DNA of 64,000 nt from Candidatus Levyibacteriota bacterium (GCA_036788695.1 DAIQMY010000002.1:66394-130393), one strand, 5' to 3'. Positions 27,323 through 53,584 are shown, numbered from the stretch's first letter. The notes: generated by a model not told the origin, from the sequence alone. Program-made: numbers and translations.

Positions 27323-29275
27323 ATGGAAGAAACAGGATTTAATAAAATAGATGTAAGTAGTACACCGGTAAGGAAGTCTACCGTTGCAAACCCACAATCA
27401 CAAATGAAAAAGAAACGAATTACCTTTTTTAAAACAAGAAAACAAAAAATTATTGGAGCTATAGTTTTAGCAGTAATTCTTTTAATTGCATATATTGGAG
27501 TAAATACTTTCATTTTTCTAAGTGATGCCAATAAGGCATATGCTCAGGCAAAAATTGCTTATGATGCAATAAAACAACAAAATGTTGTGGTAGCAAAAGA
27601 AGAGTTAGTAAAGACTCAAAAGCAACTTGCCGTTTTACAGCGCGACTTAGTGCCGATTGCTTTTTTGGGCTATATTCCATTTTTTGGCGGGTACTATAAT
27701 GATGTTAAAAATTTAGTCGATGCATCTAGTCATGGAATAAATGCGGGCATAACGGCAACAGATTCTCTTATTCCCTATGCTGACGTTTTGGGATTAAAGG
27801 GAGATAAGAGTTTTGCACAGGGGAGCGCAGAAGATAGAATTCGTCTTGCGATAAAAACAATGGATAAGGTCGTGCCTAAGATTGACACGATTGAAAAAGA
27901 TTTGATTGCAGCAAAGAAAGCAACAGACAAGGTTAACCCAAACAGATATCCCTCAATTGGAAAATTGAAAAAAGTACACGACAGCTTGCAGGATCTAAAA
28001 AATATAGTTGACGGATCTGTTATAGCCGTTGAACAAGGAAAGCCTCTCATTAAGTTATTACCTGATCTGCTAGGCGCAAACGGCGAGAAGAAATATTTAG
28101 TTTTATTCCAAAACGATAAAGAACTAAGACCTACAGGTGGTTTCATGACTTTCTATGCTGTTTTTAGACTTGAGCAAGGAGTAATACATGTCGATAAGGC
28201 AGGAGACATATACACATTGGATGATTCTTTGCCTTCTCACCAACCTGCACCTCCAATTATTGCGAAATATCTTCCTAAGGTAGATACATTTAATATACGA
28301 GACAGTAATCTTTCTCCCGATTTTGTTGAATCCATGAAGACATTCAATAAAATGTATAACACTTCAAGAGATAAAGCTGATATTGATGGAATCATTGCAA
28401 TTGACACTCATTTTCTAGTTTCAATTTTGGATGTTCTGGGGGATGTCCAGGCTGGTGGGCTTACATTTAATTCAAAGAATGATCCTCGATGTGATTGTCC
28501 TCAAGCTGTATTTGTTCTTGAAGATAATACTACAAAGCCGGTTAATTATATAAAGACGAACAGGAAAGGATTATTAGCAGAGCTGTTATTTGCAATTATT
28601 CAAAAGGCTCTTTCTTCATCTCCTAAGGAATATTGGGGAAATTTGATGCAGACTGCAATTAATGATGCACAAGAAAAACACGTTATGTTCTATCTGTTTA
28701 ATCCTGAAGCACAAAAAGGGATAGATGCGCTGGGTTGGTCAGGTGCAATTAAACCATTTGAAGGAGATTATCTTCACATTAATGATTCCAACTTTGGCGG
28801 TGCAAAGTCTAATTTATTTGTGGAGCAAAATGTTAGAGTTGACTTTAAGATTGACGGTAATGGGGAAGTTACAAAAACACTAACTATTTCTTATAAGAAT
28901 CCTAAACCTCACTCTGACTGTAATTTAGAACATGGTGAATTGTGTCTGAACGCAACCTTAAGAGACTTTCAAAGAGTATATGTTCCGAAAGGATCTACGC
29001 TCATTTCATCTAAAGGTTCAGAAGTGAAAACAACCGTTAAAGAAGACTTAGGAAAAACAGATTTTGAGTCGTTCTTAACTGTTAATCCTTTGGGTTCTGC
29101 GAAAATAATATATGAATATAAACTTCCATTCAAGGTTGAAGGGAAAACCCTACCGTTTCTTATACAGAAACAGCCGGGGACAGACGCTGTACCTTACGAA
29201 ATCTATGTAAATGGGAACAAAACAGATGCATTTAATCTATCAACTGATCGTGAGATTCAAATTCCTGTCCGATGA
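27323..29275 (+). CDS. Hypothetical membrane-anchored exported protein (650 aa, single N-terminal TM)
   Basis: ORF with one hydrophobic helix (res ~45-65) and a long soluble domain. Possibly DUF4012-like, but I cannot verify that. Confidence 0.3.
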   Translation: MEETGFNKIDVSSTPVRKSTVANPQSQMKKKRITFFKTRKQKIIGAIVLAVILLIAYIGVNTFIFLSDANKAYAQAKIAYDAIKQQNVVVAKEELVKTQKQLAVLQRDLVPIAFLGYIPFFGGYYNDVKNLVDASSHGINAGITATDSLIPYADVLGLKGDKSFAQGSAEDRIRLAIKTMDKVVPKIDTIEKDLIAAKKATDKVNPNRYPSIGKLKKVHDSLQDLKNIVDGSVIAVEQGKPLIKLLPDLLGANGEKKYLVLFQNDKELRPTGGFMTFYAVFRLEQGVIHVDKAGDIYTLDDSLPSHQPAPPIIAKYLPKVDTFNIRDSNLSPDFVESMKTFNKMYNTSRDKADIDGIIAIDTHFLVSILDVLGDVQAGGLTFNSKNDPRCDCPQAVFVLEDNTTKPVNYIKTNRKGLLAELLFAIIQKALSSSPKEYWGNLMQTAINDAQEKHVMFYLFNPEAQKGIDALGWSGAIKPFEGDYLHINDSNFGGAKSNLFVEQNVRVDFKIDGNGEVTKTLTISYKNPKPHSDCNLEHGELCLNATLRDFQRVYVPKGSTLISSKGSEVKTTVKEDLGKTDFESFLTVNPLGSAKIIYEYKLPFKVEGKTLPFLIQKQPGTDAVPYEIYVNGNKTDAFNLSTDREIQIPVR

Positions 29276-33867: not shown

Positions 33868-35552
33868 TGCCAACAAGAAGTACAAAGTTTCGTCTTATAT
33901 TTGTTTTAGGTTTTTTTGCAGGATTATATTTGTTGGTTTTGCTCCGTTTATTTTATTGGCAAGTTGCTCGAGCAGATGAGCTAAAAACCATTGGCGAGAA
34001 TCAAAGTTCTGATAGGATAACCATAAATGCGATGCGGGGTGAAATCCTTGCATCTGACTCATTTCCTCTTGCCACAAATAAAATCTCATATCTTTTATAT
34101 GCAAATCCTAAGGTAGTAACTAATCCAGTTGACTATGCAAGAGCACTGTCACCTATTGTAGCAATTGAAGAGTCATCTATTGCTGCAAAACTAAATCAGA
34201 ATTTGTTTTGGGTTCGCATTGCCCAAAAACTCCCTGATACAAAAAAACAAGAAGTTGAGAATCTAAACCTTTCCGGACTTGGATTTTATGAACAGTCTGA
34301 AAGATACTACCCTGAAGCTTCAATGGCAGCGCAATTAATTGGATTTTTGGGCATTGATAAAAGTGGTGAGAATAGAGGATTTTTTGGGTTAGAGGGTTAT
34401 TATAACGATCAATTAAGAGGGAAAGATGGAAGTTTATATGTAGTAAAAGATGCGTTAGGACATCCTGTTGTAAATGATATACGGGAAGAAAAAAAGATTG
34501 ACGGTAGAAGTATACAGTTAACATTGGATCGTACTATTCAGTTTCTTTCTCAGAAACGGTTACTTGATGGGGTAAATAAGTATGAGGCAGAGGGTGGAAG
34601 CATTATAGTATTAAACACGAAAACAGGAGGAATTTTAGCCGCAGCATCTACTCCAAATTTTGATCCTCAACATTATTATGACTTTGATCCGAAATCATTA
34701 AAAAATCCAATAATTTCTGATCTTTATGAGCCAGGCTCTACCTTTAAGGTTCTTGTAATGGCGGCAGCACTCGACCTTGGAAAAGTAAAGCCTGATACAA
34801 AATGTGATATTTGTTCAGGTCCCGTATCTATAGGTGAATATAATATAAGGACATGGAACAATAAATATTTTCCAAACGCGACTATGACTGATGTTATACA
34901 GCATTCCGATAATACAGGAATGGTATTTGTGGGAAGAAGGTTAGGGGAAGAGAATCTTTTATCATATATTAAGCGATTCGGCATTGGGGACATAACGGGA
35001 GTTGATCTTCAGGGTGAAACGTCAGGTGAGTTAAGAACAGATTGGCACAGTATTGATTATGCTACTACTACTTTTGGACAAGGAATTTCAGTGACTCCAC
35101 TCCAATTAATAACTTCTGTGAATAGCATTGCAAATAGTGGGAAGCTCGTGAAGCCCTACATTGTTTCAAAAATAATAACCGAGGACGGAAAAGTTATTCC
35201 AATGAAACCTAATTCCTATAAGCGTGTTGTGAAGGAGTCTACCGCCAAGGTTGTAACCTGGATGATGGTAAATGCCGTAGAGAAGGGGGAAGCAAAATGG
35301 ACAAAACTTCAACACTATTCAATAGCGGGGAAAACTGGAACAGCTCAAATTCCCGTTGCAGGGCACTATGATCCAAACCAAACTGTAACTTCATTTGTAG
35401 GCTTTTTTCCGGCTGAAGATCCACAAATAACTATGCTAGTTGTTGTCCATAAGCCAAAAACATCAATTTATGGATCAGAAACAGCAGCTCCCATATTTTT
35501 TGCCGCAGCAAAAGACATCATACATTATTTGGGAATTCCGCCATCAAATTAA
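33867..35552 (+). CDS. ftsI: Penicillin-binding protein, class B transpeptidase (FtsI/PBP2-like)
   Basis: N-terminal TM. The SxxK motif is in YEPGSTFKV, SxN in HSDNTG and KTG in IAGKTGTAQ. Confidence 0.85.
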   Translation: MPTRSTKFRLIFVLGFFAGLYLLVLLRLFYWQVARADELKTIGENQSSDRITINAMRGEILASDSFPLATNKISYLLYANPKVVTNPVDYARALSPIVAIEESSIAAKLNQNLFWVRIAQKLPDTKKQEVENLNLSGLGFYEQSERYYPEASMAAQLIGFLGIDKSGENRGFFGLEGYYNDQLRGKDGSLYVVKDALGHPVVNDIREEKKIDGRSIQLTLDRTIQFLSQKRLLDGVNKYEAEGGSIIVLNTKTGGILAAASTPNFDPQHYYDFDPKSLKNPIISDLYEPGSTFKVLVMAAALDLGKVKPDTKCDICSGPVSIGEYNIRTWNNKYFPNATMTDVIQHSDNTGMVFVGRRLGEENLLSYIKRFGIGDITGVDLQGETSGELRTDWHSIDYATTTFGQGISVTPLQLITSVNSIANSGKLVKPYIVSKIITEDGKVIPMKPNSYKRVVKESTAKVVTWMMVNAVEKGEAKWTKLQHYSIAGKTGTAQIPVAGHYDPNQTVTSFVGFFPAEDPQITMLVVVHKPKTSIYGSETAAPIFFAAAKDIIHYLGIPPSN

Positions 35553-36163
35553 AATAGTTCAGGGTATTTTTCGCGAAGAGTAGTTGTATTTTTATCACGG
35601 TCAGATACTACTATGTCCTGCTTTTCTATTGGCCACTGTATGTGAAGTTCAGGATCAAAAAGTGATATAGCAACATCATTTTTAGAATCTCTTGTTCTGT
35701 AGAGTTCATCAACTGCATAAATATAGTCTACTGGTGCATCTACTACACACAGGGAGTTTGCAATCCCCTTTGTTATAAATAAAGAACCTGGCAAGGCATT
35801 GTTTCCAAATCCCAATAAAATGTACTCTGTCTTAGCAAATGTTTGAGATTCTGGTCGTATGTCTGCTAAAACACAGAGGCATACGCCATGCGTTACGGTA
35901 ACAAGCTTATTCCAATCTTCAGCATGAAAACCACGTATAACATTTTTTACAGAACGTGCATGGTTTAGCTGTTTTATTACAAATTTTGATCCAATTACGT
36001 CTTCTAAATCGGGGATTAGTGCTTCCTCACGATAAAAACCTCTTTCGTCAGTATGCAATACCGTATCTATATAATATAAACCAGGAATAGATGTTTTATA
36101 AATTCTCTCAGAAACCTTGTTTTTTTCGTCAACTGTGTAAAGGGGAATGTTCTCAAGCTGCAT
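35549..36163 (-). CDS. RmlC-like cupin (dTDP-4-dehydrorhamnose 3,5-epimerase family)
   Basis: NHARSVKNVIRGFHAE...KLVTVTHGVCLCVLADIR parallels the RmlC RGLHxQ...VxxGxxxDVAVDLR core. Antisense to the dcw cluster and convergent with ftsI. Confidence 0.55.
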   Translation of the reverse strand: MQLENIPLYTVDEKNKVSERIYKTSIPGLYYIDTVLHTDERGFYREEALIPDLEDVIGSKFVIKQLNHARSVKNVIRGFHAEDWNKLVTVTHGVCLCVLADIRPESQTFAKTEYILLGFGNNALPGSLFITKGIANSLCVVDAPVDYIYAVDELYRTRDSKNDVAISLFDPELHIQWPIEKQDIVVSDRDKNTTTLREKYPELF

Positions 36164-37764: not shown

Positions 37765-39090
37765 ATGAAGAAGTACATTATAAATGGAGGAAGAAAATTA
37801 AGTGGTGAAGTTACTATTTCAGGTGCAAAAAATATTGCCCTTAAGGCGATTGTTGCAGCATGTCTAACTCAGGAAAAAGTTGTAATACGAAATATTCCTA
37901 AAATTTCTGATGTGTATAACATGTTGGATCTTGTAAAAAGTATAGGGGGAGTAGTGACTATAGATGATCATACGGTTACAATTGAGGCGGGAAAGTTAAG
38001 TACATTCACAATTCCTCTGGAGGCTGGAGCAAAGACCAGAACATCAACCTTGTTTCTGGCACCCCTTTTAGCAAGAGCAAAAGAAGCAATTATCCCAAAT
38101 CCTGGCGGATGTAGAATAGGCGCGCGTCCTATAGACAGAATTGTTGATGGTCTTGAAAAGATGAATGTTGAGATTCTTTATAATTCGGAAGATGGATATT
38201 TTCATGCAAAAACACAGGGACTGAAAGGAACCATATACCGTTTTTCAAAAAACTCACACACAGGAACTGAGACTATGATTTTAACTGCAGTTTTGGCTGA
38301 TGGGAAAACAGTCATACAAAATGCTGCATTAGAACCTGAAGTGGACAGTCTCATTGAACTATTGAATATGATGGGTGCAAGAGTTACAAGAAAAGAGGGG
38401 AAAGAAATTGAAATCATTGGAGTCAGTGAGCTTCATGGAGCTGAATATACCTTGCCCCAGGACAGGAATGAAGTCGCAACATTTGCCATAGCGAGTATAC
38501 TTACGGGCGGAGATATTTTTATTCAAGATGTAGACTTGAAATCTCTTGACGCATTTATCAATGAGTGTAAAAAGGCCGGGGTAAGCGTTGAAGTACGCGG
38601 GTCTGATATCCGATTTTATAGAACGGGAGATATTCTACCTACAAATATCACAACGAATCCCCATCCTGGATTTATGACTGATTGGCAGGGTGTATGGGCA
38701 CTTTTAATGACCCAGGCAAATGGCACATCATATATCCATGAGACTGTATATGAGAACAGATTTGGATACATGAAAGAACTCAATAAAATGGGTGCGGAAA
38801 TTTCTTTTGTAAATCCGGACATGGGGAATTATGATGAAATATATAATTTTAATTATGATCCGAAACAGGAATATCATCAAAAGATTGAAATAAAAGGACC
38901 TACAGCGCTTCATAATGCTGTCTTATCAATGTCTGATTTACGTGCGGGTGCTACTCTTGTTTTAGCCTCTCTTATTGCAAGTGGTACAAGCGTTATTTAT
39001 GGAATTGAACAGGTTCAAAGAGGATATGAGAAATTTGATGAACGATTGAAGATGTTAGGTGCAGATATAGAGTGTAAGGAGGAAAAATAA
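37765..39090 (+). CDS. murA: UDP-N-acetylglucosamine 1-carboxyvinyltransferase
   Basis: KLSGEVTISGAKNIALKAIVAACL, with the catalytic Cys in NPGGCRIGARPID. Confidence 0.85.
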   Translation: MKKYIINGGRKLSGEVTISGAKNIALKAIVAACLTQEKVVIRNIPKISDVYNMLDLVKSIGGVVTIDDHTVTIEAGKLSTFTIPLEAGAKTRTSTLFLAPLLARAKEAIIPNPGGCRIGARPIDRIVDGLEKMNVEILYNSEDGYFHAKTQGLKGTIYRFSKNSHTGTETMILTAVLADGKTVIQNAALEPEVDSLIELLNMMGARVTRKEGKEIEIIGVSELHGAEYTLPQDRNEVATFAIASILTGGDIFIQDVDLKSLDAFINECKKAGVSVEVRGSDIRFYRTGDILPTNITTNPHPGFMTDWQGVWALLMTQANGTSYIHETVYENRFGYMKELNKMGAEISFVNPDMGNYDEIYNFNYDPKQEYHQKIEIKGPTALHNAVLSMSDLRAGATLVLASLIASGTSVIYGIEQVQRGYEKFDERLKMLGADIECKEEK

Positions 39091-40328
39091 TGTTAGCAGT
39101 ATTGCTTGCAGCAGGGGAATCATCCAGATTTTATCCGTATAATGATTTGGGGCACAAAAGCCTTGTTACTCTTTGTGGGAAAAAACTGATTGTTCACACG
39201 CTGGATTCCTTACGAGAATCAAATATTAAAAATGTGATTATAGTTGAGAATAAAAATAGGTCGGTGTCAAAAAGTCTTTCAGTCTCAGATACAAAGGGTC
39301 TCAGTGTAAAATTTATTGTTCAGGATTCGCCAGCAGGGATGGGGGAGGCTGTGCTTCTTTGTAAGCCGTACATAAAAGAAACTTTTTTTCTTTTAAATGC
39401 GTATCATTTTGAATTTTCTGAAGTAGCAAAAGAACTATTAAAGATCAGCAAGAAAGGTTATCTTGCGCTTTTAACCAAAGAAGAAAAAAACGCGAAAGAA
39501 TTTGGATCAGTTGAATTAAAAAATGGAAAGATGGTTATTTCAGAGAAAAAAAATAGTGAAGCAAAAGATAGAATTGTAGGAATATATTGTCTTCCTGTGG
39601 CGTTTCTTGACGTGCTGGAAAAAGAAAAAAAAGATCATTATAGCTTTGAAAGTGCTCTTACCTCTTTCTCACAAACAAACAGGATAGAGCTTGTGCAAAC
39701 AAAAAAGGAGACGCTTTCATTAAAATATCCTTGGGATATTTTAAGCATAAAAGACTATATGCTTGAGCGATTAAAAAAACATAAAGGGAAGGGTGTTACT
39801 ATTTCAAAACGAGCTGTATTACACGGTGAGGTATATATTGACGATGGTGCAACCATTATGGATGGTGCTGTCATAACTGGGCCATGTTATATTGGGAAAA
39901 ATGCATATATAGGAACAAATTCCATACTAAGAGGGGGAAGTCTTATTGAGGAGAAAGTGGTGGTAGGCGCAGGGTTAGAAGTAAAAAACAGTGTTCTTAT
40001 GAAGGGAGTAAAAACACATTCAGGGTTTATTGGAGATTCTTTAGTTGGGGAAAACACTAAAGTTGCCGCGGGGTATAACAGTGCAAATGTAAGATTGGAT
40101 AAGGAAAATGTGAAAGTGAAGGTAAAAGGTGAATATGTAAGTACTGGTCGTAAGTATTTTGGGGCAATTATAGGTTCAGGAGTATCATTTGGAATACGAG
40201 TCGGCACAATGCCGGGAGTAGTAATTGGGAACAATGATTTAATTGGACCTGGAACAACAGTTATGCAGAATTTGGAAGACAATATTACGTATTACACGGA
40301 AATAAAAGGAGTTATTACAAAGCGTTAG
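39090..40328 (+). CDS. GlmU-like bifunctional protein: N-terminal sugar-1-phosphate nucleotidyltransferase, C-terminal left-handed beta-helix
   Basis: MLAVLLAAGESSRF (LAAGxGxR-type). The C-terminal hexapeptide repeats are VITGPCYIGKNAYIGTNSILRGGSLIEEKVVVGAG... Confidence 0.5.
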   Translation: MLAVLLAAGESSRFYPYNDLGHKSLVTLCGKKLIVHTLDSLRESNIKNVIIVENKNRSVSKSLSVSDTKGLSVKFIVQDSPAGMGEAVLLCKPYIKETFFLLNAYHFEFSEVAKELLKISKKGYLALLTKEEKNAKEFGSVELKNGKMVISEKKNSEAKDRIVGIYCLPVAFLDVLEKEKKDHYSFESALTSFSQTNRIELVQTKKETLSLKYPWDILSIKDYMLERLKKHKGKGVTISKRAVLHGEVYIDDGATIMDGAVITGPCYIGKNAYIGTNSILRGGSLIEEKVVVGAGLEVKNSVLMKGVKTHSGFIGDSLVGENTKVAAGYNSANVRLDKENVKVKVKGEYVSTGRKYFGAIIGSGVSFGIRVGTMPGVVIGNNDLIGPGTTVMQNLEDNITYYTEIKGVITKR

Positions 40329-41332
40329 AGATTTGTAATTTTTTTCCACAAAAATGGGGCATTTTGGGGCAAGTACCACTCAGAATTATGTGCCCCGTAT
40401 TTAAAAAACGCAATATCTGTTTTCCCTCCAAAGTCTTGTACTTGACTAATATCATCATCAAAGTGTTTCATTGAGGGAAAAGTCCATAAAGGGGGTTCAG
40501 ACCATGCACCCAGAGCTATAATAAACTGTATATTTTTATCAATTCTTTCTATTTCTGAAATGGAACGGCTCGCAACTGTTGCAACAAAATCAGGATAATA
40601 ATCTTCTACGTTTGTGTAGGCATTTATCATGACAATATCTGCTACGTTTTTTCCAAATGGATTTCCTTGCCTAAAAAAATCGTTTGTGTAGTCATAAAAA
40701 AACCAACCGTTCATACGAATAAGTATAGGATGGTTAGGGTCGGTATTTTTTACATCTCTATATGAGTTTTGGAGTTGCGAAAGCGTAAGGTAGTACTTCC
40801 TGTCTGCATTTGGTAGCACAGATCCCGCTTCATTTGAGGTGTCCCATGCGTATAATGCAGGATGGTTTTTATACAAGTTTACAAAATGTATTACTTTTTC
40901 TTTTTGCCATTGTGGCATTTGATCTTTGGGATATGTTTCAGTGTTGCACTCATATCCCCATTCAGCTTCTCCTGCGCCTGCAGGAAGAATAACTTTTAAA
41001 TTATGTTGATGCGCTCGATCTAAAAATGAACGCACATCTTCTTCTGATTCGCAAATGTCAAAATTTCCTTCAATAACGTCTATTTTTGCATTTTGTAAAA
41101 CAGCAAAGTCGTTATCTGTTAAGCCAAAATCATCCATGTATGCTTCACCTACATCCTTCAAAATTTTTCTTTGAGTGCGTTCTCCTATTTTCTGAATTGG
41201 GGTTATACTGCTTTTTTGTGTATTGCTCCTTGTCATGCCAGTTGAGATTTTTGAAACAAACTGTAATGGTTGGTTGAGGAAGATAATGATGAATGAAGCC
41301 AAAATTGAAAAAAAGAGTATTGGCTTTATCAT
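40325..41332 (-). CDS. Secreted TIM-barrel glycoside hydrolase (clan GH-A-like; family not assignable by eye)
   Basis: N-terminal signal/TM. YAWDTSNEAG is an NE acid/base-type motif. ALGAWSEPP is a possible nucleophile-Glu motif. Last gene of the minus-strand operon. Confidence 0.4.
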   Translation of the reverse strand: MIKPILFFSILASFIIIFLNQPLQFVSKISTGMTRSNTQKSSITPIQKIGERTQRKILKDVGEAYMDDFGLTDNDFAVLQNAKIDVIEGNFDICESEEDVRSFLDRAHQHNLKVILPAGAGEAEWGYECNTETYPKDQMPQWQKEKVIHFVNLYKNHPALYAWDTSNEAGSVLPNADRKYYLTLSQLQNSYRDVKNTDPNHPILIRMNGWFFYDYTNDFFRQGNPFGKNVADIVMINAYTNVEDYYPDFVATVASRSISEIERIDKNIQFIIALGAWSEPPLWTFPSMKHFDDDISQVQDFGGKTDIAFFKYGAHNSEWYLPQNAPFLWKKITNL

Positions 41333-41345
41333 GTTGTGCGGTACA

Positions 41346-43760
41346 CTACTGCTTGTTAAACGTTACGGAATCTATAAGAACATTTCCTGTAGAGGTTGCT
41401 GTAGTATAGAACTGAACCCTTATTTTTTTAACTGATGTGTTTGTTGGGATATAGCTAAATTGTTTAATTCCTGTGAAGGAAGTATTTATCATGCCTTTCC
41501 ACTGTCCGGAAATCCAATTATCCGCTGCATCGTATTCATCTATGTAAAATCCAAATTCTCCTGTTAGATTAGTTGTTTTAACGTATGATGACCAAACATA
41601 CTGGAACGTAGCATCAATAGGAGTTAGAGCAGAAAAGAAATGCGCTCTTAAGTTATTTATGTTTATGGTAATGCTATTTGCACCGTCATTTCCTTCTGAT
41701 CCAGTATTTACTATCCAAGAGGTCGAATCAGATGTCCACGCTGTTGGCAGGTTTCCTGAAACGCTTTCAAAAGATGAGTTACTAAGAATATTTGCGCCAG
41801 GTGTAGGCGTAACAGTAGGTGTTGCGGTTGGTGTTGCAGTTGGAGTAACTGTAGGTGTAACGCTAGGCGTAATTGTTGGAGCCACAGTAGGAGTAGCTGT
41901 AGGTGTAACAGATGGGCTAATGGTTGGTGTTGCAGTTGGAGTAACTGTAGGTGTAGGCTGCGAATTATCAAGTAATGAAACTGAGTCAAGTGTTGTATCC
42001 CCAGTGCTGTTTGGAACGAGGTAATATTGAAGTCTTATTTTGTTTACAAGTGCACCTGTTGGCGTGTACACAAAAGTCTTTAAGCCATCAAAAATCGTAT
42101 TTATCATGCCTTTCCACTGTCCGGATATCCAATTTCCAGCGGTATCGTATTCATCTATGTAAAATCCAAATTCTCCTGTTAGATTAGCAGTTTTAAGATA
42201 TTGTGACCATGAGTATTGTGTTGTTGTAGATGGTATTGCTATCAAGTCGGAAAATAGATGGCTATAATTTGCGCTTCCTGATACTTTTGCGCTATTTGTT
42301 GCGTCATTTCCCTCCGAAAGTGAATTTATTACCCAATTTGCGGTGTCGTGAGTCCAATTAGATGCGAAAGCACCTGTTGTTTGTTCAAAACTATTATTTG
42401 CCACAAGATTTAGGTTTGGCGTAGGAGTGGGAGTTACGCTTGGGGTTATAGTAGGTGTAACAGTTGGGGTAACGCTTGGCGTCGCGGTAGGTGTAACGGT
42501 AGGTACAAGTGTTGGTGTTGCTGATGGTGTAGCCGCAAGATCATGGAGGGATATGTTATCAACGTATGCATTTCCAGTAGCTCCTGCAGTAAAGTATGTT
42601 TGTATTCCAATCTTTGAGACTAGTGAAGAGGTCGTTTCATAAAACTTTGTAAAGAAGCCGATCGTGTTATTCGCAACCAATCCAAGCCACTGTCCGGAAA
42701 TCCAATTATCCGCTGCATCGTATTCATCTATATAGAATCCAAGCTCACCAGTTGTAACACCTGTTGTTGAGTAAAACGCCTCCAGTAAATAGTCTGCTCC
42801 AGGAATAACGCTTATTAAACCTGAGAATAAATGTGTTGCAGTTGCACCACCTGTAAGTTTTGCTGAATTACTAGAATCTTGAGCTGCGCCATTGTTATTT
42901 GTATCAAGTGTTGTTTGAGTGTTACCCGCTGTCCAATTAGTGAGTCCATTTGAAAAGTCTGAATTGGTGACTATATTTACACCGGGTGCTTTAATCCCGT
43001 CTCTAATACTTACAACTGGAATTTGTTTTTCATTAATATAGTCAGCGATTGCCGTTAAATCTGTTGAAGTAGTTGTATATTCATAGTTTGGGTCTAATTG
43101 TGGCGCAACATGATGGAAAACAAGAATAAGCCATTGTTTATTTGTTATTGCGGAATCAATATATGCCTTAACCTGGGCAATAGTTGTTGCAGAATTTATA
43201 TCTTGAACCTGTAAGATTGCTTTATTTGAAGGCACTGAGTTATATGCAATGTCTGCAAATCCTCTATGCGAATCAAATAATTTAAGAGCTTCTGTTAGTA
43301 CGATATTGTCATATGCTCCAAAGGGTGTTGCAAGATTACTCACTGAAAGTCCATGTGCCTCAAGCTCTTCTTTTGAGGTAGTGAACTCAGAAATAATTTG
43401 AGTTTGAGTTAAGAGGGGTAGCTCAGGATGAGTGGCTGTGTGATTGCCCACTTCCCAGCCATATACATTTTGAAGATTTTGCAACTGTGCCCAGGACATA
43501 GAAGGAAGCCCGTCATCTGTTAGACCACTATTTATATATCCTGAAGTAGCATAAATAACACCTTTTATGTTCCTGGATGAGAGTATTGGCAACGCCTCTG
43601 TATAGGTAGATAGAAATCCGTCATCAAAGGTTAAGGACACCTGTGCCCTTTGGTATACCGCAGGGTCAACTGCAGCGTAGGTATTTCCCACAAACAATAA
43701 TTGAGCAACTATTGTTACAAGCACTAGGTATGTAAGTATTTTTTTTGTTATATTAAACAT
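41346..43760 (-). CDS. Secreted polysaccharide deacetylase (CE4/NodB domain) followed by three tandem CBM4/9-like beta-sandwich modules separated by Thr-Pro linkers
   Basis: Signal peptide. CE4 motifs are TFDDG, GNHTATHP and LILVFHH. Three repeats begin NSDFSNG/NNSFEQ/NSSFES and each contains EFGFYIDEYD(A/T)A(D/G)NWISGQW. Linkers are TPTVTPTATPSVTPT... Confidence 0.7.
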   Translation of the reverse strand: MFNITKKILTYLVLVTIVAQLLFVGNTYAAVDPAVYQRAQVSLTFDDGFLSTYTEALPILSSRNIKGVIYATSGYINSGLTDDGLPSMSWAQLQNLQNVYGWEVGNHTATHPELPLLTQTQIISEFTTSKEELEAHGLSVSNLATPFGAYDNIVLTEALKLFDSHRGFADIAYNSVPSNKAILQVQDINSATTIAQVKAYIDSAITNKQWLILVFHHVAPQLDPNYEYTTTSTDLTAIADYINEKQIPVVSIRDGIKAPGVNIVTNSDFSNGLTNWTAGNTQTTLDTNNNGAAQDSSNSAKLTGGATATHLFSGLISVIPGADYLLEAFYSTTGVTTGELGFYIDEYDAADNWISGQWLGLVANNTIGFFTKFYETTSSLVSKIGIQTYFTAGATGNAYVDNISLHDLAATPSATPTLVPTVTPTATPSVTPTVTPTITPSVTPTPTPNLNLVANNSFEQTTGAFASNWTHDTANWVINSLSEGNDATNSAKVSGSANYSHLFSDLIAIPSTTTQYSWSQYLKTANLTGEFGFYIDEYDTAGNWISGQWKGMINTIFDGLKTFVYTPTGALVNKIRLQYYLVPNSTGDTTLDSVSLLDNSQPTPTVTPTATPTISPSVTPTATPTVAPTITPSVTPTVTPTATPTATPTVTPTPGANILSNSSFESVSGNLPTAWTSDSTSWIVNTGSEGNDGANSITININNLRAHFFSALTPIDATFQYVWSSYVKTTNLTGEFGFYIDEYDAADNWISGQWKGMINTSFTGIKQFSYIPTNTSVKKIRVQFYTTATSTGNVLIDSVTFNKQ
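41795..41980. repeat. Thr-Pro linker-encoding tandem repeat 2 inside the CE4-CBM gene
   Basis: Same 6-nt periodicity. Source of the spurious ORFs 41659..42024(+) and 41711..41989(-). Confidence 0.6.
42427..42550. repeat. Thr-Pro linker-encoding tandem repeat 1 (ACN-CCN periodicity) inside the CE4-CBM gene
   Basis: Produces spurious antisense Gly-Val ORFs (42427..42642). Read directly from the sequence. Confidence 0.6.
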
Positions 43761-44367
43761 TGCATTCTCCTTCTGAAATAGATATAAGTTTTGCTTTTAC
43801 GACAAATCGCTGTTCAGAGAAAGCACCAGCACAAGTAATTAAGGTAAGGGTAGGCTTTTCTGTGGGATAAAATGCTTCAACGTTTGCGGGATCACTCACG
43901 CCAACTGATGTCACCTTATAGACCGCTGTATGTTCTGCTGTTTTTACAACTATCTCCTCTCCTGTTGAGAGTTTTTTAATGTTTGTAAAGCCATTTTCCT
44001 TATCGTGCGCGAATATTCCCACATTTCCTTTAATCCGGGATACTGTATTTGTTTCTTTAGCGTAGTTTGCAACTCCTTCATTTACTTTCCATGTACCATT
44101 TTGAAGCGCAACTGTTGTAACCGGTAAGTTTATTCCTGCTTTTTTTATCAAAATCTGTTGAGGTATATAATCGTCTTTGTTTGTGCATGTTGTAAGTTTT
44201 GCATAGGAGACTGCAGCCGGTTGTGGATGTTCTGGCAATAAATTAGCTGCCGCGATAGAAGTTACTCCAGATAATTGGAGAATACTTGCGGTTATAACCA
44301 CGAATAACCCTATCCCTAAGGGAAGTTTTTCCTGTGTTCGTTTTGTATTAAATTTAAGCTTATTCAT
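43753..44367 (-). CDS. Sortase (cysteine transpeptidase)
   Basis: N-terminal TM anchor. His motif GNVGIFAHDKENGF, catalytic Cys in LTLITCAG (TLxTC), downstream Arg (QRFVVKAKL). Confidence 0.75.
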   Translation of the reverse strand: MNKLKFNTKRTQEKLPLGIGLFVVITASILQLSGVTSIAAANLLPEHPQPAAVSYAKLTTCTNKDDYIPQQILIKKAGINLPVTTVALQNGTWKVNEGVANYAKETNTVSRIKGNVGIFAHDKENGFTNIKKLSTGEEIVVKTAEHTAVYKVTSVGVSDPANVEAFYPTEKPTLTLITCAGAFSEQRFVVKAKLISISEGECNV

Positions 44368-44369
44368 GT

Positions 44370-44562
44370 TTACCTTTGTCTGTTTGAATTTATGAGAAAT
44401 CTAGTTATTGATCCCATTAAAACTATCAAGCTTACAAAACTGACCGTAAAAAGTGCCCCAACTAATATTGGGTCTGCATTATTAGCCAATAATATTCCTC
44501 CTGCTGTTGTTGCAGGTAATGATGTTGCTGCTCCTAATACGCTTCCGCGTCCATAATCTGTC
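44370..44562 (-). CDS. 64-aa peptide that is essentially a cell-wall-sorting-signal-like module (LPATT + hydrophobic helix + basic tail). Either a sortase substrate or an IcaD/PgaD-like synthase accessory subunit.
   Basis: Strong RBS (AAAGGAG, 9 nt) before the ATG at 44562. Translation is MTDYGRGSVLGAATSLPATTAGGILLANNADPILVGALFTVSFVSLIVLMGSITRFLINSNRQR. The longer 118-aa version in the track overlaps the GT2 C-terminus and is unlikely. Confidence 0.4.
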
Positions 44563-44583
44563 ATAATATATAGCTCCTTTCTT

Positions 44584-45849
44584 TTATGCTCTTGTACCCC
44601 ACGATAGTGTGTACCCGATTTTTTGAAATGCTCTGTGTCCTGCTTGTTCTGCTGCGATGAGCTTAGGTGAATATTTGATTGCAAATCTAGACAACGTGTT
44701 GAAAATGAAAAACATATAAGAACCAATTAATATTGCAGATAAGATGTTGGAATATATAAATTCAGGAATGATAAGAGCCTTTACTATCCAATCCCATTTG
44801 TCACGTTCTTTGAAAGAAAGCAAGGAAATTAAGTTAAAAGAGTAGGAAAGTATAAAATGTAAGAGCGCAATTACGAAAATACCAAATACTAATGCCGGCG
44901 GTGTTTCGTGATTTCTTACTACCACAAGAGACAGAAGCACAACTAGTAGTAAAGATAAGAATAGTGTGTGCCCAATAATATCTTGAAGTACGTGAGCATA
45001 GTCTTTCCAGAAATCCTTAACCACAATAATCCCGCCATAGCTCCATCTTACTCTCTGCTTCCATAGTTCAGGTAGAGTTTCAGGAACATTTGTCCATGCA
45101 TGAGCACTAGGTGCAATAGCTGTTTTCCATCCAGCCTTTTTAATTCTTACCGTAATGTCATAATCTTCAATTAGTTTATCAACGTTGTATCCCTTTACGT
45201 CTAAAAGCGCGCTATATCTAAATGCTGAAAGCATCCCCTGCATAACAAGTGGTCCTGAAAGAAATCCAGTATCGCTTATTTTTGTGATATTAAATCCGTG
45301 GTACTCAAGGCTTTGTAGTCTTGTTAATAAATTTTTCTTTCTGTTTTTAACCCACGCATTTGATACGACCGCACCTATTTTTGCATCTTGAAAAAGTACG
45401 TCAACTAATATCTGAATGGTATTGTGATTTATTGTAACGTCGTCATCAAATGTCAGGACAACATCTGGTTTACTTTTCTGTTTTGAAATATGGGTGAGTG
45501 CAAAATTTAACGCTTGCGCTTTTAAATGCGTCTTGTCGGTTCTTAGTAAAACTATTTTTTTGTTTTTTTGCGTAAGTGCTTTTATTTTTTCAAGGATGGT
45601 TGTGCTTTGTAGCGCGTTTTTTGGAGTATTGTCATCAACAACAATTATCTGTATGTTCTTGTCCCATGTAGATATATTATTTATAAGCCTATAAGTTATA
45701 TATTTAGGTTTAAATGTGGGGATAATTACCGTTATACGTTTCTTATGTGAAACATGCGTAAGCATTTTTTTTATACCCTTCTTTGGGACAAAAAATGCAA
45801 AAAACTCTCGTGCAAATTTTCTTGATTTTACAATAATTTCTTGAGACAT
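44584..45849 (-). CDS. Processive family-2 glycosyltransferase (IcaA/PgaC/NodC/chitin-synthase-like polysaccharide synthase) with C-terminal TM helices
   Basis: ITVIIPTFKPKY...IIVVDDNTP, a DDD patch (LTFDDDVT), and WKQRVRWSYGG, which is the QxxRW processivity motif. 4-5 C-terminal TM helices. Confidence 0.75.
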   Translation of the reverse strand: MSQEIIVKSRKFAREFFAFFVPKKGIKKMLTHVSHKKRITVIIPTFKPKYITYRLINNISTWDKNIQIIVVDDNTPKNALQSTTILEKIKALTQKNKKIVLLRTDKTHLKAQALNFALTHISKQKSKPDVVLTFDDDVTINHNTIQILVDVLFQDAKIGAVVSNAWVKNRKKNLLTRLQSLEYHGFNITKISDTGFLSGPLVMQGMLSAFRYSALLDVKGYNVDKLIEDYDITVRIKKAGWKTAIAPSAHAWTNVPETLPELWKQRVRWSYGGIIVVKDFWKDYAHVLQDIIGHTLFLSLLLVVLLSLVVVRNHETPPALVFGIFVIALLHFILSYSFNLISLLSFKERDKWDWIVKALIIPEFIYSNILSAILIGSYMFFIFNTLSRFAIKYSPKLIAAEQAGHRAFQKIGYTLSWGTRA

Positions 45850-45987
45850 AAATCTGGATTTTACACTATGAGATTATAAATGTCTAGTACCAATACCAGA
45901 TAATAAAAGTAAGACCTGAACAGACTAAGGTATTTAATAAAAATTTTCGTAAAAGATGCTAAGCTTCAAAGGAAATTAAAAGATAGG

Positions 45988-46016
45988 TTGAAAGTAAATG
46001 TTAAAAGCCCTATAAT
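45988..46016 (+). promoter_or_regulatory. Candidate promoter for mraY-ftsW-murG: TTGAAA-17-TATAAT
   Basis: Near-consensus hexamers with exact 17-nt spacing, 40 nt upstream of the mraY ATG, in the divergent intergenic region. Confidence 0.4.
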
Positions 46017-46056
46017 TCAATCTATTGAATACATTTGTTATAGTATTTAAATTTTT

Positions 46057-47067
46057 ATGGATAAAATTTTTGGTCTAGCAATTCTTTCTTTTACGATTAC
46101 TGCAATATTACTTGTCCCATTCATAGATTTTCTTTACAAGATAAAGCTCCAGAGAAAACACTTTAAATCAAGGGACATGTTTAATAAGCGGACACCAATC
46201 TTTGATAAATTCTCCCGAGGAAAAGTAGGAACTCCTTTTGGAGGGGGAATATTAATTATCATTGTTGTAACGGTTATATCATTGTGGACCTATGGAATTT
46301 TTTCAGTTGAAGTAAAGTTTTGGGAATTATTTGTATTGTTATTTGCCTTTATAGGATTCGGTGCCCTTGGTTTTTATGATGACTTAAGAAAAATATTAAA
46401 TCGTGGGACTGACGGATTTTTTGGATTGTCTTTTAAATATAAATTCCTATTACAGTGGGTGCTTGCACTTATTATTGGCGCTATATTCTACTATCAGCTA
46501 GGTTACTCGTTTATTTATTTGCATTGGCTAGGTAAAGTATCATTGGGGCTTTTATTTATTCCATTTGCGGCATTTGTTATTGTATCTTTTGTAAATGCTT
46601 TCAACATAACTGATGGGTTAGATGGTCTTGCATCAGGAGTATTTCTTATAGCACTTATTGCATTTCTTACAATTTCACACGCGCTCCTTGATTTATCCCT
46701 AGGTCTTTTTATCTCAATTCTTATAGGTGCAATAGCAGCATTTTTATATTTTAATATTTTCCCTGCACGGTTATGGCTAGGAGATGTGGGATCGCTTTCG
46801 TTGGGTGCTGCCCTTGCTGTTATTGGTTTATTAACCGGGAAAACTGCGGCAATTGGAATTATTGGAGGAGTATTTGTCGTAGAGGTTGCCTCAAGTCTCA
46901 TACAAATATTGGGTAAAAGAATATTGGGAAGAAAATTATTGCCAGTAGCCCCTCTCCATTTATATTTTATGGAAAAAGGGTGGGGTGAGCCAAAGACTGT
47001 AATGCGTGCATGGTTGTTTGCGATCATCTTTGCAGTAATTGGTCTTTATATTGCCTTTATTGCATAA
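46057..47067 (+). CDS. mraY: Phospho-N-acetylmuramoyl-pentapeptide transferase
   Basis: VNAFNITDGLDGLASG motif, ~10 TM helices, dcw context. Confidence 0.85.
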   Translation: MDKIFGLAILSFTITAILLVPFIDFLYKIKLQRKHFKSRDMFNKRTPIFDKFSRGKVGTPFGGGILIIIVVTVISLWTYGIFSVEVKFWELFVLLFAFIGFGALGFYDDLRKILNRGTDGFFGLSFKYKFLLQWVLALIIGAIFYYQLGYSFIYLHWLGKVSLGLLFIPFAAFVIVSFVNAFNITDGLDGLASGVFLIALIAFLTISHALLDLSLGLFISILIGAIAAFLYFNIFPARLWLGDVGSLSLGAALAVIGLLTGKTAAIGIIGGVFVVEVASSLIQILGKRILGRKLLPVAPLHLYFMEKGWGEPKTVMRAWLFAIIFAVIGLYIAFIA

Positions 47068-53089: not shown

Positions 53090-53584
53090 CTAACTTTTGC
53101 CTATCTTTTTTAAAACTTCTCCCATTTTTTTTCCAAAGTCGCTGGAGTTGACGATATAATCATGAAACATTTGTTTGAATTCAGTTAATACTTTATCTCT
53201 GTCATTTGGTTGAGAGTTAGCTATGGTTACAGCTAACTGATATAACAGAATTGGGGAGATATCAAGCCACTTACCGTTAATTCTAAGGAAGATTAAGATG
53301 GTCATTACAGCAATTCTTTTGTTCCCATTTGCGAAAGGGTGATTTTTTATCAATGAATAAAACAAAGCTGCAGTTAGGTCAACTAATGTTGGATTATCTG
53401 TATTATGAAATGTATTTTTAGGAGAAGCCAAGGATGATTCTAGCAAGGGAATATCCCGTGTTGAATAGTCAGGAATTGGCTCGCCGAACGACATAAGTTC
53501 TCTAGCGAGGTTGAAGCAGATAAACTCAAAATCTTCTACGTTTAACCACTTAGGCTGCAGCAAGTCTTCGGAATGTTTCCTCAT
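53090..53584 (-). CDS. doc: Fic/Doc-family toxin (death-on-curing type)
   Basis: HPFANGNKRIAV matches the Fic/Doc motif HPFx[DE]GN[GK]R. Size ~160 aa. Confidence 0.7.
   Translation of the reverse strand: MRKHSEDLLQPKWLNVEDFEFICFNLARELMSFGEPIPDYSTRDIPLLESSLASPKNTFHNTDNPTLVDLTAALFYSLIKNHPFANGNKRIAVMTILIFLRINGKWLDISPILLYQLAVTIANSQPNDRDKVLTEFKQMFHDYIVNSSDFGKKMGEVLKKIGKS

Follow-up and report, generated by a model that had tools for sequence, protein, structure and literature searches.

What is a sortase doing inside an operon for polysaccharide synthesis, and does it act on a product of that same operon? The question arises in a window of 64,000 nucleotides (the whole stretch of DNA analysed here) from an uncultured Levybacteria (CPR) genome. 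Between a GlmU-like gene (39090-40328, plus strand, convergent with the operon) and mraY (46057-47067, plus strand, on the synthase side), the dcw cluster (mraZ-rsmH-PBP-murC-murA ... mraY-ftsW-murG-ftsA-ftsZ) is interrupted by five minus-strand genes. A first-pass annotation had described these as co-directional and tightly spaced, and both the ORF listing and the profile searches bear it out, with the coordinates confirmed and neighbours separated by -8, 2, 13 and 19 nt. The genes encode a family-2 glycosyltransferase (GT2), a 64-aa membrane peptide, a sortase, a carbohydrate esterase family 4 (CE4) deacetylase and a glycoside hydrolase (GH). The divergent intergenic region between the GT2 gene and mraY (45850-46056) holds one promoter-like site per strand, TAGACA-17-TAAAAT on the minus strand (45886-45858) and TTGAAA-17-TATAAT on the plus strand (45988-46016), each recognized only by its match to consensus.

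Conservation of the module

The annotation had read this block as an insertion in the dcw cluster, which holds only in part. The dcw-embedded arrangement recurs in 23 contigs from different samples, ruling out the assembly chimera that would have refuted the reading, but it is confined to one Levybacteria species group, and elsewhere the module has other surroundings. Genes for GT2, peptide, sortase, CE4 and GH occur in the same order in Levybacteria, WWE3, Dojkabacteria and further Patescibacteria loci, and a sortase-free version (GT2-peptide-CE4-GH) is present in Kaiserbacteria and Parcubacteria. CE4 and GH also accompany the GT2-peptide pair in many contexts without neighbouring dcw genes; the possibility that they are not co-conserved with the GT2, likewise named in advance as refuting, thus fails across many Patescibacteria lineages. 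The GT2 and small peptide form an invariant core in about 100 loci, with the peptide ORF directly downstream of the GT2 gene in nearly all of them. The proposed combination of ica/pga logic with a sortase is supported, with the sortase an accessory in one part of the family and the GT2-peptide pair the universal core. The gene identities, the conservation of the unit and the motif/sortase co-variation described below are shown directly; the product and its fate are not.

The synthase, its probable donor and the putative modifying enzymes

The GT2 (421 aa; 44584-45849, minus strand) was identified by Pfam and NCBIfam profiles, motifs and a TM scan, which gives a cytoplasmic GT-A domain followed by three TM segments at the C-terminus, with none at the N-terminus. 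It matches Glyco_tranf_2_3 at 1.9e-23, and its best matches are PgaC/IcaA, NodC and hyaluronan, chitin and cellulose synthases. The nearest family is PgaC_IcaA (128.1 bits, E 4.1e-37, residues 28-307), ahead of NodC (72 bits, 5.6e-20), with weak matches to XrtG- and XrtP-associated glycosyltransferase families; model positions 1-35 of PgaC_IcaA, where PgaC has its N-terminal TM, are unmatched. When the profile was compared with the PDB, hyaluronan synthase (HAS), chitin synthase and BcsA matched over the catalytic and gating region, and the N-terminal GT-A half also resembled ArnC, DPM and GtrB-type enzymes. The motifs DDD135, E228/D229 and QRVRW265-269 are invariant across 33 homologues. The D, DxD, ED and Q(R/Q)xRW motifs with following TM helices that define a processive membrane GT2 are thus all present, upholding the earlier QxxRW assignment and contradicting a non-processive enzyme (Q265, R266, R268 and W269 do not vary); the channel itself is inferred. 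By homology we place the GT2 among processive membrane synthases. Because it falls far short of the TIGR03937 PgaC/IcaA equivalog cutoff (128 versus 422.3 bits), the exact product could be another beta-glycan.

Evidence for the donor sugar is indirect. A natural fusion (P0107) joins a GlmU uridyltransferase domain (4.6e-61) to a GT2 of the same family, and GlmU family genes follow CE4 co-directionally in three loci (L032, L033 and L035), both pointing to UDP-GlcNAc. This assignment is well supported and likely, albeit inferred. The GlmU-like gene beside the operon encodes an archaeal-type sugar-1-phosphate nucleotidylyltransferase/acetyltransferase (TIGR03992, 283 bits; cutoff 292) and is a probable supplier of UDP-GlcNAc, an inference from association. 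A GlcNAc-based polymer is likewise probable. That it is specifically beta-1,6 PNAG is a narrower claim to which we lean slightly against committing, the linkage being unresolved. The PNAG/chitin-like product and wall anchoring suggested by the annotation both remain inference.

The predicted secreted CE4 was confirmed. The protein (804 aa; 41346-43760, minus strand) has a signal peptide, a PF01522 match over cutoff (9e-18) and the Asp-Asp and His-His motifs of the family (TFDDG44-48, HTATH107-111 and LVFHH213-217), followed by three CBM-fold repeats (nt 42537-42980, 41964-42413 and 41349-41795, minus strand) joined by Pro/Thr linkers. The repeats are compared with beta-sandwich (jelly-roll) modules of the CBM4/16/22/70 kind, an assignment that rests on fold and is tentative as to sequence family. 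Its top match is HfsH, a holdfast polysaccharide deacetylase, at only 43.9 bits against a cutoff of 400; PgaB (24.9 bits; cutoff 321.9) and NodB also match, as do the peptidoglycan deacetylases PdaA and PgdA, weakly. The TIM-barrel hydrolase held up as well: the 335-aa membrane-tethered or secreted protein (40325-41332, minus strand) has a clan GH-A (beta/alpha)8 fold with a candidate acid/base at N167-E168 after beta4 and a candidate nucleophile, E279, after beta7, both Glu residues being conserved. Dozens of GH-A families matched it equally well, and no CAZy or Pfam family could be assigned.

A probable small synthase partner with a sorting signal

The 64-aa small membrane subunit, a predicted sortase substrate (44370-44564, minus strand), is supported as a gene by its ribosome-binding site (AAAGGAG, 8 nt upstream of the ATG), by conservation and by selection, as synonymous changes exceed nonsynonymous ones among close relatives, indicating purifying selection. 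It consists of a 15-aa N-terminus, LPATT (residues 16-20; 44505-44519, minus strand), a 12-aa spacer, a 21-aa hydrophobic segment (one TM) and the basic tail RFLINSNRQR, and therefore contains the tripartite C-terminal sorting signal of LPXTG-like motif, hydrophobic segment and basic tail; no other ORF of the window resembles a sorting signal. The family consensus, LPAT[S/A/T]A, lies 35-36 residues ahead of a C-terminal R[YF]xxN, a spacing constant in 66 family members, and the P1' residue is Ser, Ala or Thr, unlike the Gly of LPXTG. An aromatic-x-G-G motif near the N-terminus is kept in peptides with and without a sortase. Neither a Sec signal peptide nor a folded passenger domain is present, only 15 residues without a hydrophobic stretch preceding the motif, and in these sequence features the peptide differs from any characterised sortase substrate. 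No Pfam or NCBIfam model matched at E<=0.01, and no IcaD or PgaD homology was detected with either collection, leaving a positional and architectural analogue only. Its N-out topology is inferred from sequence alone, resting on hydropathy and the positive-inside rule.

Two nucleotides beyond the peptide stop codon begins the gene for a membrane-anchored sortase (204 aa; 43753-44367, minus strand). The earlier sortase call is secure: PF04203 matches at 2e-20 (73.2 bits; cutoff 26.6) and TIGR01076 at 40.1 bits, slightly over its cutoff of 39.35. Residues 17-35 form the TM anchor, and His121, Cys179 and Arg187 are intact in the alignment. PDB relatives are of class D, C and E, and none of the class A-F models reached its cutoff (about 160 bits), class E scoring 47.5 and class C 35.9 bits.

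The two genes co-vary. LPxT[S/A/T/G] stands at the fixed position in all 25 non-redundant loci whose adjoining sortase retains His and Cys and in 0 of 54 loci without one. Scattered across the GT2 tree are at least six lineages in which the motif Thr is gone exactly where the sortase is missing or lacks the catalytic His and Cys. With the sortase absent, the motif reads LPVMG (L008/L082), LPAAS (L159) or LPAVS (L162); with the sortase mutated, it is lost (L006/L010; His to Thr, Cys to Thr) or reads LPAAS (L160/L161; His to Asp, Cys to Tyr), and in P0279 LPASG is fused to a sortase with His changed to Asp and Cys to Ala. Part of the association is phylogenetic, and the large sortase-less clade may reflect a single event. 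Together, the 25/25 versus 0/54 contrast and the co-losses make it very likely that the peptide is the dedicated substrate of the adjoining sortase, strongly reinforcing its earlier description as sorting-signal-like; cleavage and transpeptidation are inferred from co-variation only. As a separate observation, catalytically dead sortases are kept in three lineages, suggesting a non-catalytic role that is unexplained.

A working model and its rivals

We propose that the operon serves Patescibacteria as an exopolysaccharide module of the synthase-dependent kind, here with a sortase-processed small subunit, a model that we favour by a modest margin and that stands, on sequence alone, without biochemical evidence. 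By homology, the GT2 and single-pass peptide would form a two-subunit IcaAD/PgaCD-like synthase that builds a beta-linked GlcNAc polymer from UDP-GlcNAc and exports it. The secreted CE4, held to the polymer by its three CBM-fold modules, would partly de-N-acetylate it, and the clan GH-A hydrolase may trim or release it. The small subunit would double as an N-out sorting signal (15-aa ectopeptide, LPATT, spacer, TM and basic tail), with the peptide GAATSLPATTAGG the putative cleavage substrate. After cutting behind the Thr, the sortase would move the short, conserved ectopeptide onto an amine acceptor, physically linking synthase output to the wall built by the surrounding dcw genes. A peptidoglycan precursor is the leading candidate for that acceptor, yet we would put peptidoglycan or lipid II at slightly less than an even chance. 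The biological purpose of the transfer is also inferred, and the benefit of a 19-residue wall peptide is unexplained. A bolder and unlikely reading has the sortase forming a covalent peptide link that tethers the synthase-made GlcNAc/GlcN polymer to the cell. Either the ectopeptide would hold or join the nascent chain before going onto peptidoglycan, or an amine on the CE4-deacetylated polymer would resolve the LPAT-acyl intermediate, giving a peptide-decorated aminoglycan. No lipid carrier is used to build membrane-synthase polysaccharides (PNAG, cellulose, chitin and hyaluronan), and this reading, if true, would reveal an unknown sortase-based anchoring or modification of such a polymer.

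The most serious rival, which remains possible, is that the sortase licenses the synthase without anchoring anything: LPAT cleavage of the small subunit would be an on/off switch, the TM remnant would be the functional IcaD-like partner, and wall-precursor supply would gate polymer synthesis, since a sortase cannot turn over without an amine acceptor (lipid II, for example). In its favour, the subunit works without a sortase in Kaiserbacteria/Parcubacteria-type loci, so that its N-terminal piece is dispensable as cargo there; conservation of the aromatic-x-G-G motif in both locus types suggests that the motif functions at the synthase; retention of dead sortases suggests stable binding to the complex; and the operon lies inside the dcw cluster. 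Against it, direct evidence is lacking, dcw placement is limited to one species group, and known sortases are transpeptidases, not regulatory proteases. It could also be argued that the sortase is a general housekeeping enzyme whose position beside the GT2 and peptide is incidental, since sortases are common in CPR genomes (PMC7143001; PMC5220378) and two of the loci (L006 and L015) hold unrelated additional sortases elsewhere. The near-perfect association with the motif, the repeated co-losses of its Thr with catalytic residues or the whole sortase gene, and the near abutment of the two genes make this very improbable.

Other rivals concern the polymer. CE4 and GH might act on peptidoglycan in a mixed wall-maintenance cluster, as the PdaA and PgdA matches and the dcw setting would allow. 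We consider this unlikely, as both enzymes accompany the GT2-peptide pair in many dcw-free contexts, gene order and tight spacing indicate a single operon, the CE4 best matches HfsH, with PgaB and NodB also matching, and the GH is equally like dozens of GH-A families. Still less plausible is a GT2 that glycosylates a lipid or peptide (polyprenyl phosphate or the operon's own small peptide, for example), with a sortase-anchored glycopeptide as the operon's product. Resemblance of the GT-A half to ArnC, DPM and GtrB-type enzymes and the missing N-terminal TM of PgaC would fit, and glycosylated sortase substrates are known in Actinomyces (GspA). However, the QxxRW, ED and C-terminal multi-TM regions are invariant, and over the catalytic and gating region they align with those of HAS, chitin synthase and BcsA. 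PgaC/IcaA is the family that fits best over the full length, and the presence of a hydrolase, a deacetylase and CBM modules implies that the substrate is a polymer.

Relation to known systems

How synthase-made polymers are retained at the surface is a recurring question, and a sortase wired to the small subunit would, if our model is correct, provide a new answer, or at the minimum a new control point. It would also extend sortase substrates to a protein of about 60 residues without a signal peptide. With the peptide comes a family of small proteins without annotation, found as the universal partner of a GT2 that is widespread in Patescibacteria. For CPR bacteria, which live attached to other cells, almost nothing is known of surface chemistry. 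The compact module is testable in a heterologous host, and repeated co-loss of motif and catalytic residues supplies natural negative controls.

Several characterised systems share parts of this design. Specialised sortase-substrate pairs (SrtB-IsdC; class D SrtD, LPxTA; class E, LAxTG) likewise place a dedicated sortase, with His, Cys and Arg intact, beside the gene for a substrate with a tripartite sorting signal, and the P1' Ala/Ser/Thr here is reminiscent of the class D motifs of LPxTA type. In contrast, this predicted substrate has 64 aa, no signal peptide and a ‘cargo’ of some 15 residues, it is also the conserved partner of a polysaccharide synthase, and its sortase falls outside every NCBIfam class model. 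PEP-CTERM/exosortase (EpsH) systems (Haft et al. 2006, PMC1569441) also tie a protein-sorting transpeptidase genomically to the genes of exopolysaccharide biosynthesis, and the XrtG/XrtP-type glycosyltransferase matches, although weak, fit that parallel. Exosortases, however, are unrelated polytopic membrane enzymes of outer-membrane bacteria with many substrates per genome, whereas here a classical sortase would have one small substrate within the synthase. NodC/NodB pair a GT2 of similar size with a CE4, and NodB exposes a free amine that is later acylated; the Nod enzymes are nevertheless cytoplasmic and make short oligomers, and NodA is an acyltransferase rather than a sortase.

The closest parallels are icaADBC of staphylococci and pgaABCD of E. 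coli, with which the operon shares a GT2 synthase, a small membrane partner encoded directly downstream and a CE4 after it, in the same gene order, and a hydrolase function (in pgaABCD, the PgaB C-terminal domain), as well as PgaC/IcaA as best GT2 family and UDP-GlcNAc as likely donor. Yet the GT2 scores far too low for the equivalog, the small partner spans the membrane once instead of twice and shows no detectable IcaD/PgaD homology, the hydrolase is clan GH-A rather than GH153, the CE4 bears three CBM-fold modules, and the block includes no gene for IcaC (acyltransferase) or PgaA (outer-membrane porin). Above all, a sortase is present, with its sorting signal on the small subunit. We found no description of polysaccharide synthesis coupled to a wall-anchoring sortase in the literature searched, and we infer, at the level of sequence, that the operon represents a previously undescribed variant among synthase-dependent (ica/pga-like) exopolysaccharide systems.

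The small membrane peptide and its sortase

The 64-residue peptide encoded directly 3' of the GT2 synthase gene is probably the dedicated substrate of the adjacent sortase, a conclusion that we draw from co-variation of the two proteins; cleavage itself is inferred. The peptide gave no family match, and its identical database entry, from Candidatus Levybacteria, is named only ‘hypothetical protein’. Because such small ORFs are rarely called, searching proteins by indexed words returned just 2 relatives; an exhaustive profile search found 39 clusters. Among close relatives the first 23 residues are unchanged, and raw counts of synonymous to nonsynonymous changes run at about 2–2.5:1, which shows purifying selection on the peptide.

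The peptide is laid out like a classical sorting signal, with motif (LPATT), 12-residue spacer, about 21 hydrophobic residues and basic tail in that order, and no other ORF within the 64-kb window has this pattern. It lacks a signal peptide, however, and the ‘cargo’ ahead of the motif amounts to 15 residues. Hydropathy indicates one strong transmembrane (TM) segment at about residues 31–52; the region that surrounds the motif is weakly hydrophobic, and the basic residues sit at the C-terminus. Hydropathy and the positive-inside rule together suggest that the short N-terminus faces outward, with LPATT at the outer surface of the membrane. Membrane-anchored sortases act at this surface. By inference alone, GAATSLPATTAGG is the stretch that the sortase would cleave, and MTDYGRGSVLGAATSLPAT would mark the adduct left by the transfer. 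A PgaD-like hairpin with two TM segments is a less likely topology, as the hydropathy of the first segment reaches only 1.0–1.4; it would also place the LPxT motif mid-membrane and leave the co-variation with the sortase unexplained.

Sortase-linked peptides share the consensus Y-G-[K/R]-G-x-V-L-G-A-A-T-x-L-P-A-T-[S/A/T]-A-[A/G]-G-L-L-L ... TM ... R-[Y/F]-x-x-N, with the motif Thr at a fixed 35–36 residues before the C-terminal motif. In sortase-less peptides the homologous position reads ...SGTSxxPLGxYAGYLL... and has no LPxT. Counted over non-redundant loci whose downstream sequence extends for 1.6 kb or more, the LPxT motif is present in 25/25 where the neighbouring sortase retains both His and Cys and in 0/54 that have no sortase (the row for locus L018, a regex artefact, was corrected from a separate reading of that locus). 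This contrast is partly one of clade against clade, and the exceptions are more telling. The motif is lost in L006/L010, where the sortase carries catalytic His→Thr and Cys→Thr changes. It reads LPAAS in L160/L161, with His→Asp and Cys→Tyr in the sortase, and LPASG in the protein representative P0279, in which the peptide is fused to a sortase with His→Asp and Cys→Ala. It has become LPVMG in L008/L082, LPAAS in L159 and LPAVS in L162, all without a sortase; in L159 the CE4 gene comes directly next. A crude neighbour-joining GT2 tree scatters the co-loss lineages between intact ones. The one apparent counter-example, copy 1 in L004, keeps LPATS although its own sortase is dead (His→Asn, Cys→Ser); the module there has a second copy in tandem, whose paralogous sortase, 7 kb away, is intact. 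The motif Thr is thus kept only with an active sortase adjacent, as one would expect for an enzyme–substrate pair.

Several observations accompany this pattern. The module is in tandem duplicate in both L004 (2307-12050) and L005, with the copy 2 sortase intact. The P0279 fusion (293 aa, with no locus available) may be real or a sequencing frameshift. Catalytically dead sortases are retained in at least three lineages (L006/L010, L160/L161 and L004 copy 1), which hints at a possible additional non-catalytic, structural role, perhaps in scaffolding.

The enzymes and the inferred polymer

The GT2 protein (421 aa) matches Glyco_tranf_2_3 (1.9e-23), NodC (5.6e-20) and PgaC_IcaA (4.1e-37), the last at 128 bits, far under the 422-bit equivalog cutoff. 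DDD135, E228-D229 and Q265-R266-x-R268-W269 are invariant among 33 homologues, PDB entries for hyaluronan, chitin and cellulose synthases match the family profile over the catalytic and gating region, and three TM segments lie at the C-terminus and none at the N-terminus. On these grounds we infer that GT2 is very likely a processive-type membrane synthase, as the first-pass annotation had proposed from its QxxRW motif and C-terminal helices.

The donor sugar is indicated by neighbours and a fusion. In P0107, a 690-aa GT2 homologue with 42% identity, a GlmU uridyltransferase domain (TIGR01173, 4.6e-61) is naturally fused to a domain of this GT2 family (PgaC_IcaA, 1.3e-33). An archaeal-type GlmU gene, at 424 bits above cutoff, follows CE4 co-directionally in L032 (14155-15381), L033 and L035; the GlmU-like gene that abuts the operon in the window scores 283 bits, just short of the 292-bit cutoff. 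GlmU fusion and adjacency, the presence of CE4, and similarity to PgaC/IcaA and NodC together support a polymer that is likely GlcNAc-based. This fits the PNAG/chitin-like product that had been proposed, which stays an inference; β-1,6 and β-1,4 linkages cannot be told apart from sequence.

The sortase (204 aa; PF04203, 2e-20) has an N-terminal TM segment and intact His121, Cys179 and Arg187, and reached cutoff with none of the NCBIfam sortase class models. CE4 (804 aa) has a signal peptide followed by TFDDG, HTATH and LVFHH motifs (PF01522, 9e-18) and holds three ~150-aa repeats separated by Pro/Thr linkers. A weak Pfam match of the isolated repeats to ACD was judged spurious, and a three-sequence repeat profile found only VgrG-ACD among PDB sequences (E 0.011). 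Sequence searches assigned the GH protein (335 aa) to no family. Its N167 and E168 are invariant, just after β4, and E279, just after β7, is at least 90% conserved; this placement of the residues is the catalytic geometry of clan GH-A, with activity inferred. At L160 (6289-7461), the hydrolase in the GH position has a precomputed Pfam match to GH10 (PF00331), another clan GH-A family; the window's GH has no GH10 match.

Genomic setting and distribution of the module

The ORF listing places the five co-directional ORFs at exactly 40325-45849 on the minus strand, an island in a region that is almost all plus-strand. A 19-nt gap separates GT2 from the peptide gene, with an AAAGGAG ribosome-binding site 8 nt 5' of the peptide ATG (44564); the peptide and sortase genes are 2 nt apart, sortase and CE4 overlap by 8 nt, and CE4 and GH are 13 nt apart. 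Such distances are typical of an operon. The 207-nt gap to mraY contains one promoter-like site per strand, recognised by match to the consensus alone. By Pfam and NCBIfam assignment, the flanking genes belong to a dcw cluster in the order mraZ, rsmH, PBP, rmlC (minus strand), murC, murA, GlmU-like, block, mraY, ftsW, murG, ftsA, ftsZ.

Could the arrangement be an artefact or a recent arrival? An assembly chimera is excluded, because 23 contigs, drawn from separate samples in ENA, NCBI and Logan, show the same arrangement; the nearest database relatives are annotated Candidatus Levybacteria. We do not call the block a recent horizontal insertion, because its GC content (0.37–0.41, against 0.34–0.39 around it) carries no island signature. 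tRNA and Rfam scans of the window gave no relevant match, and a search for block-free relatives through contigs with identical MraY found only contigs that carry the block.

The surroundings have features of their own. The rmlC-like dTDP-4-dehydrorhamnose 3,5-epimerase gene (35549-36163, minus strand) shares 4 nt with the end of the PBP/ftsI gene and is a second antisense sugar-metabolism gene in the cluster. MraY (46057-47067, plus strand) is 100% identical in protein sequence across the 23 contigs (35 index blocks) from different samples (L001, L002, L163–L170), and its neighbours are only 80–96% identical between these relatives. A Fic-domain gene (53090-53584, minus strand), assigned because its identical counterpart in L163 bears that Pfam mark, lies just 3' of ftsZ alongside small unannotated ORFs, and a 650-aa DUF4012 protein (27323-29275, plus strand) is encoded upstream of the cluster.

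Scanning by pattern and by tblastn, both based on the GT2 alignment, returned 51 loci from Patescibacteria genomes and 80 from metagenomes; ORFs were then called in them and compared with the window proteins. Levybacteria, WWE3, Dojkabacteria and other lineages share the full order GT2-peptide-sortase-CE4-GH, and loci of the Kaiserbacteria and Parcubacteria type carry either GT2-peptide-CE4-GH or just the GT2-peptide pair. The invariant core is GT2 with a small ORF directly 3', found in almost every locus with sequence available. The dcw context is confined to the closest relatives (L001, L002 and the contigs sharing identical MraY), so the module is an old Patescibacteria unit with an incidental dcw placement in this Levybacteria species group. 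In the crude GT2 tree (L001–L162), a large sortase-less Kaiserbacteria/Parcubacteria-type clade nests within sortase-bearing lineages; the sortase may be ancestral and later lost, with rooting and tree method both weak. Many ‘binchicken’ MAG records with the module (L001, L004, L005, L011, L012, L016 and others) are titled ‘uncultured Gammaproteobacteria’ or ‘Pseudomonadales’, a taxonomy that looks wrong for bearers of a Patescibacteria module.

Of the first-pass claims, the antisense five-gene block was confirmed and the sorting-signal-like peptide was supported, and the co-conservation of CE4 and GH with GT2, set there as a test, was observed; embedding in the dcw cluster held for the window and its closest relatives only, not for the module at large. 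That reading is supported to the extent that computation allows, with linkage, acceptor and function open.

A putative mechanism and known systems

We propose that GT2 and the peptide would be the two subunits of one synthase, on the pattern of IcaA/IcaD or PgaC/PgaD, and that CE4 and the GH-A enzyme would process the exported polymer. In the window's lineage, the sortase would cleave after Thr19 of the peptide and pass on the conserved ectopeptide; the amine that receives it would most plausibly belong to a peptidoglycan precursor. This step could serve tethering or synthase licensing, and we cannot decide between them. GlcN C2-amines were set aside as acceptors, because the -CH2-NH2 of 6-aminohexoses is reportedly the only such group that S. 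aureus SrtA accepts (review PMC9060782); they are kept only in a bolder, less likely reading, in which a sortase-made peptide link would tether or decorate the GlcNAc/GlcN polymer.

The literature searched contains no description of a sortase-linked GT2/CE4 module, or of PNAG- or chitin-synthase-like genes in Patescibacteria. The gene logic of the block is that of icaADBC and pgaABCD, yet several features that define those systems are missing: scores stay under the equivalog cutoffs, the peptide lacks IcaD or PgaD homology, neither IcaC nor PgaA is present, and the hydrolase has a different fold. The nearest concept is the PEP-CTERM/exosortase system tied to EPS loci (PMC1569441), whose enzymes are unrelated to those of the block. 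The sortase and peptide resemble dedicated sortase–substrate pairs, but the substrate is unprecedented in its size, its missing signal peptide and its dual role. We infer that this is likely a synthase-dependent GlcNAc-type exopolysaccharide machinery in a form not yet described, distinguished by a sortase for which the small subunit of the synthase itself is the putative dedicated substrate.
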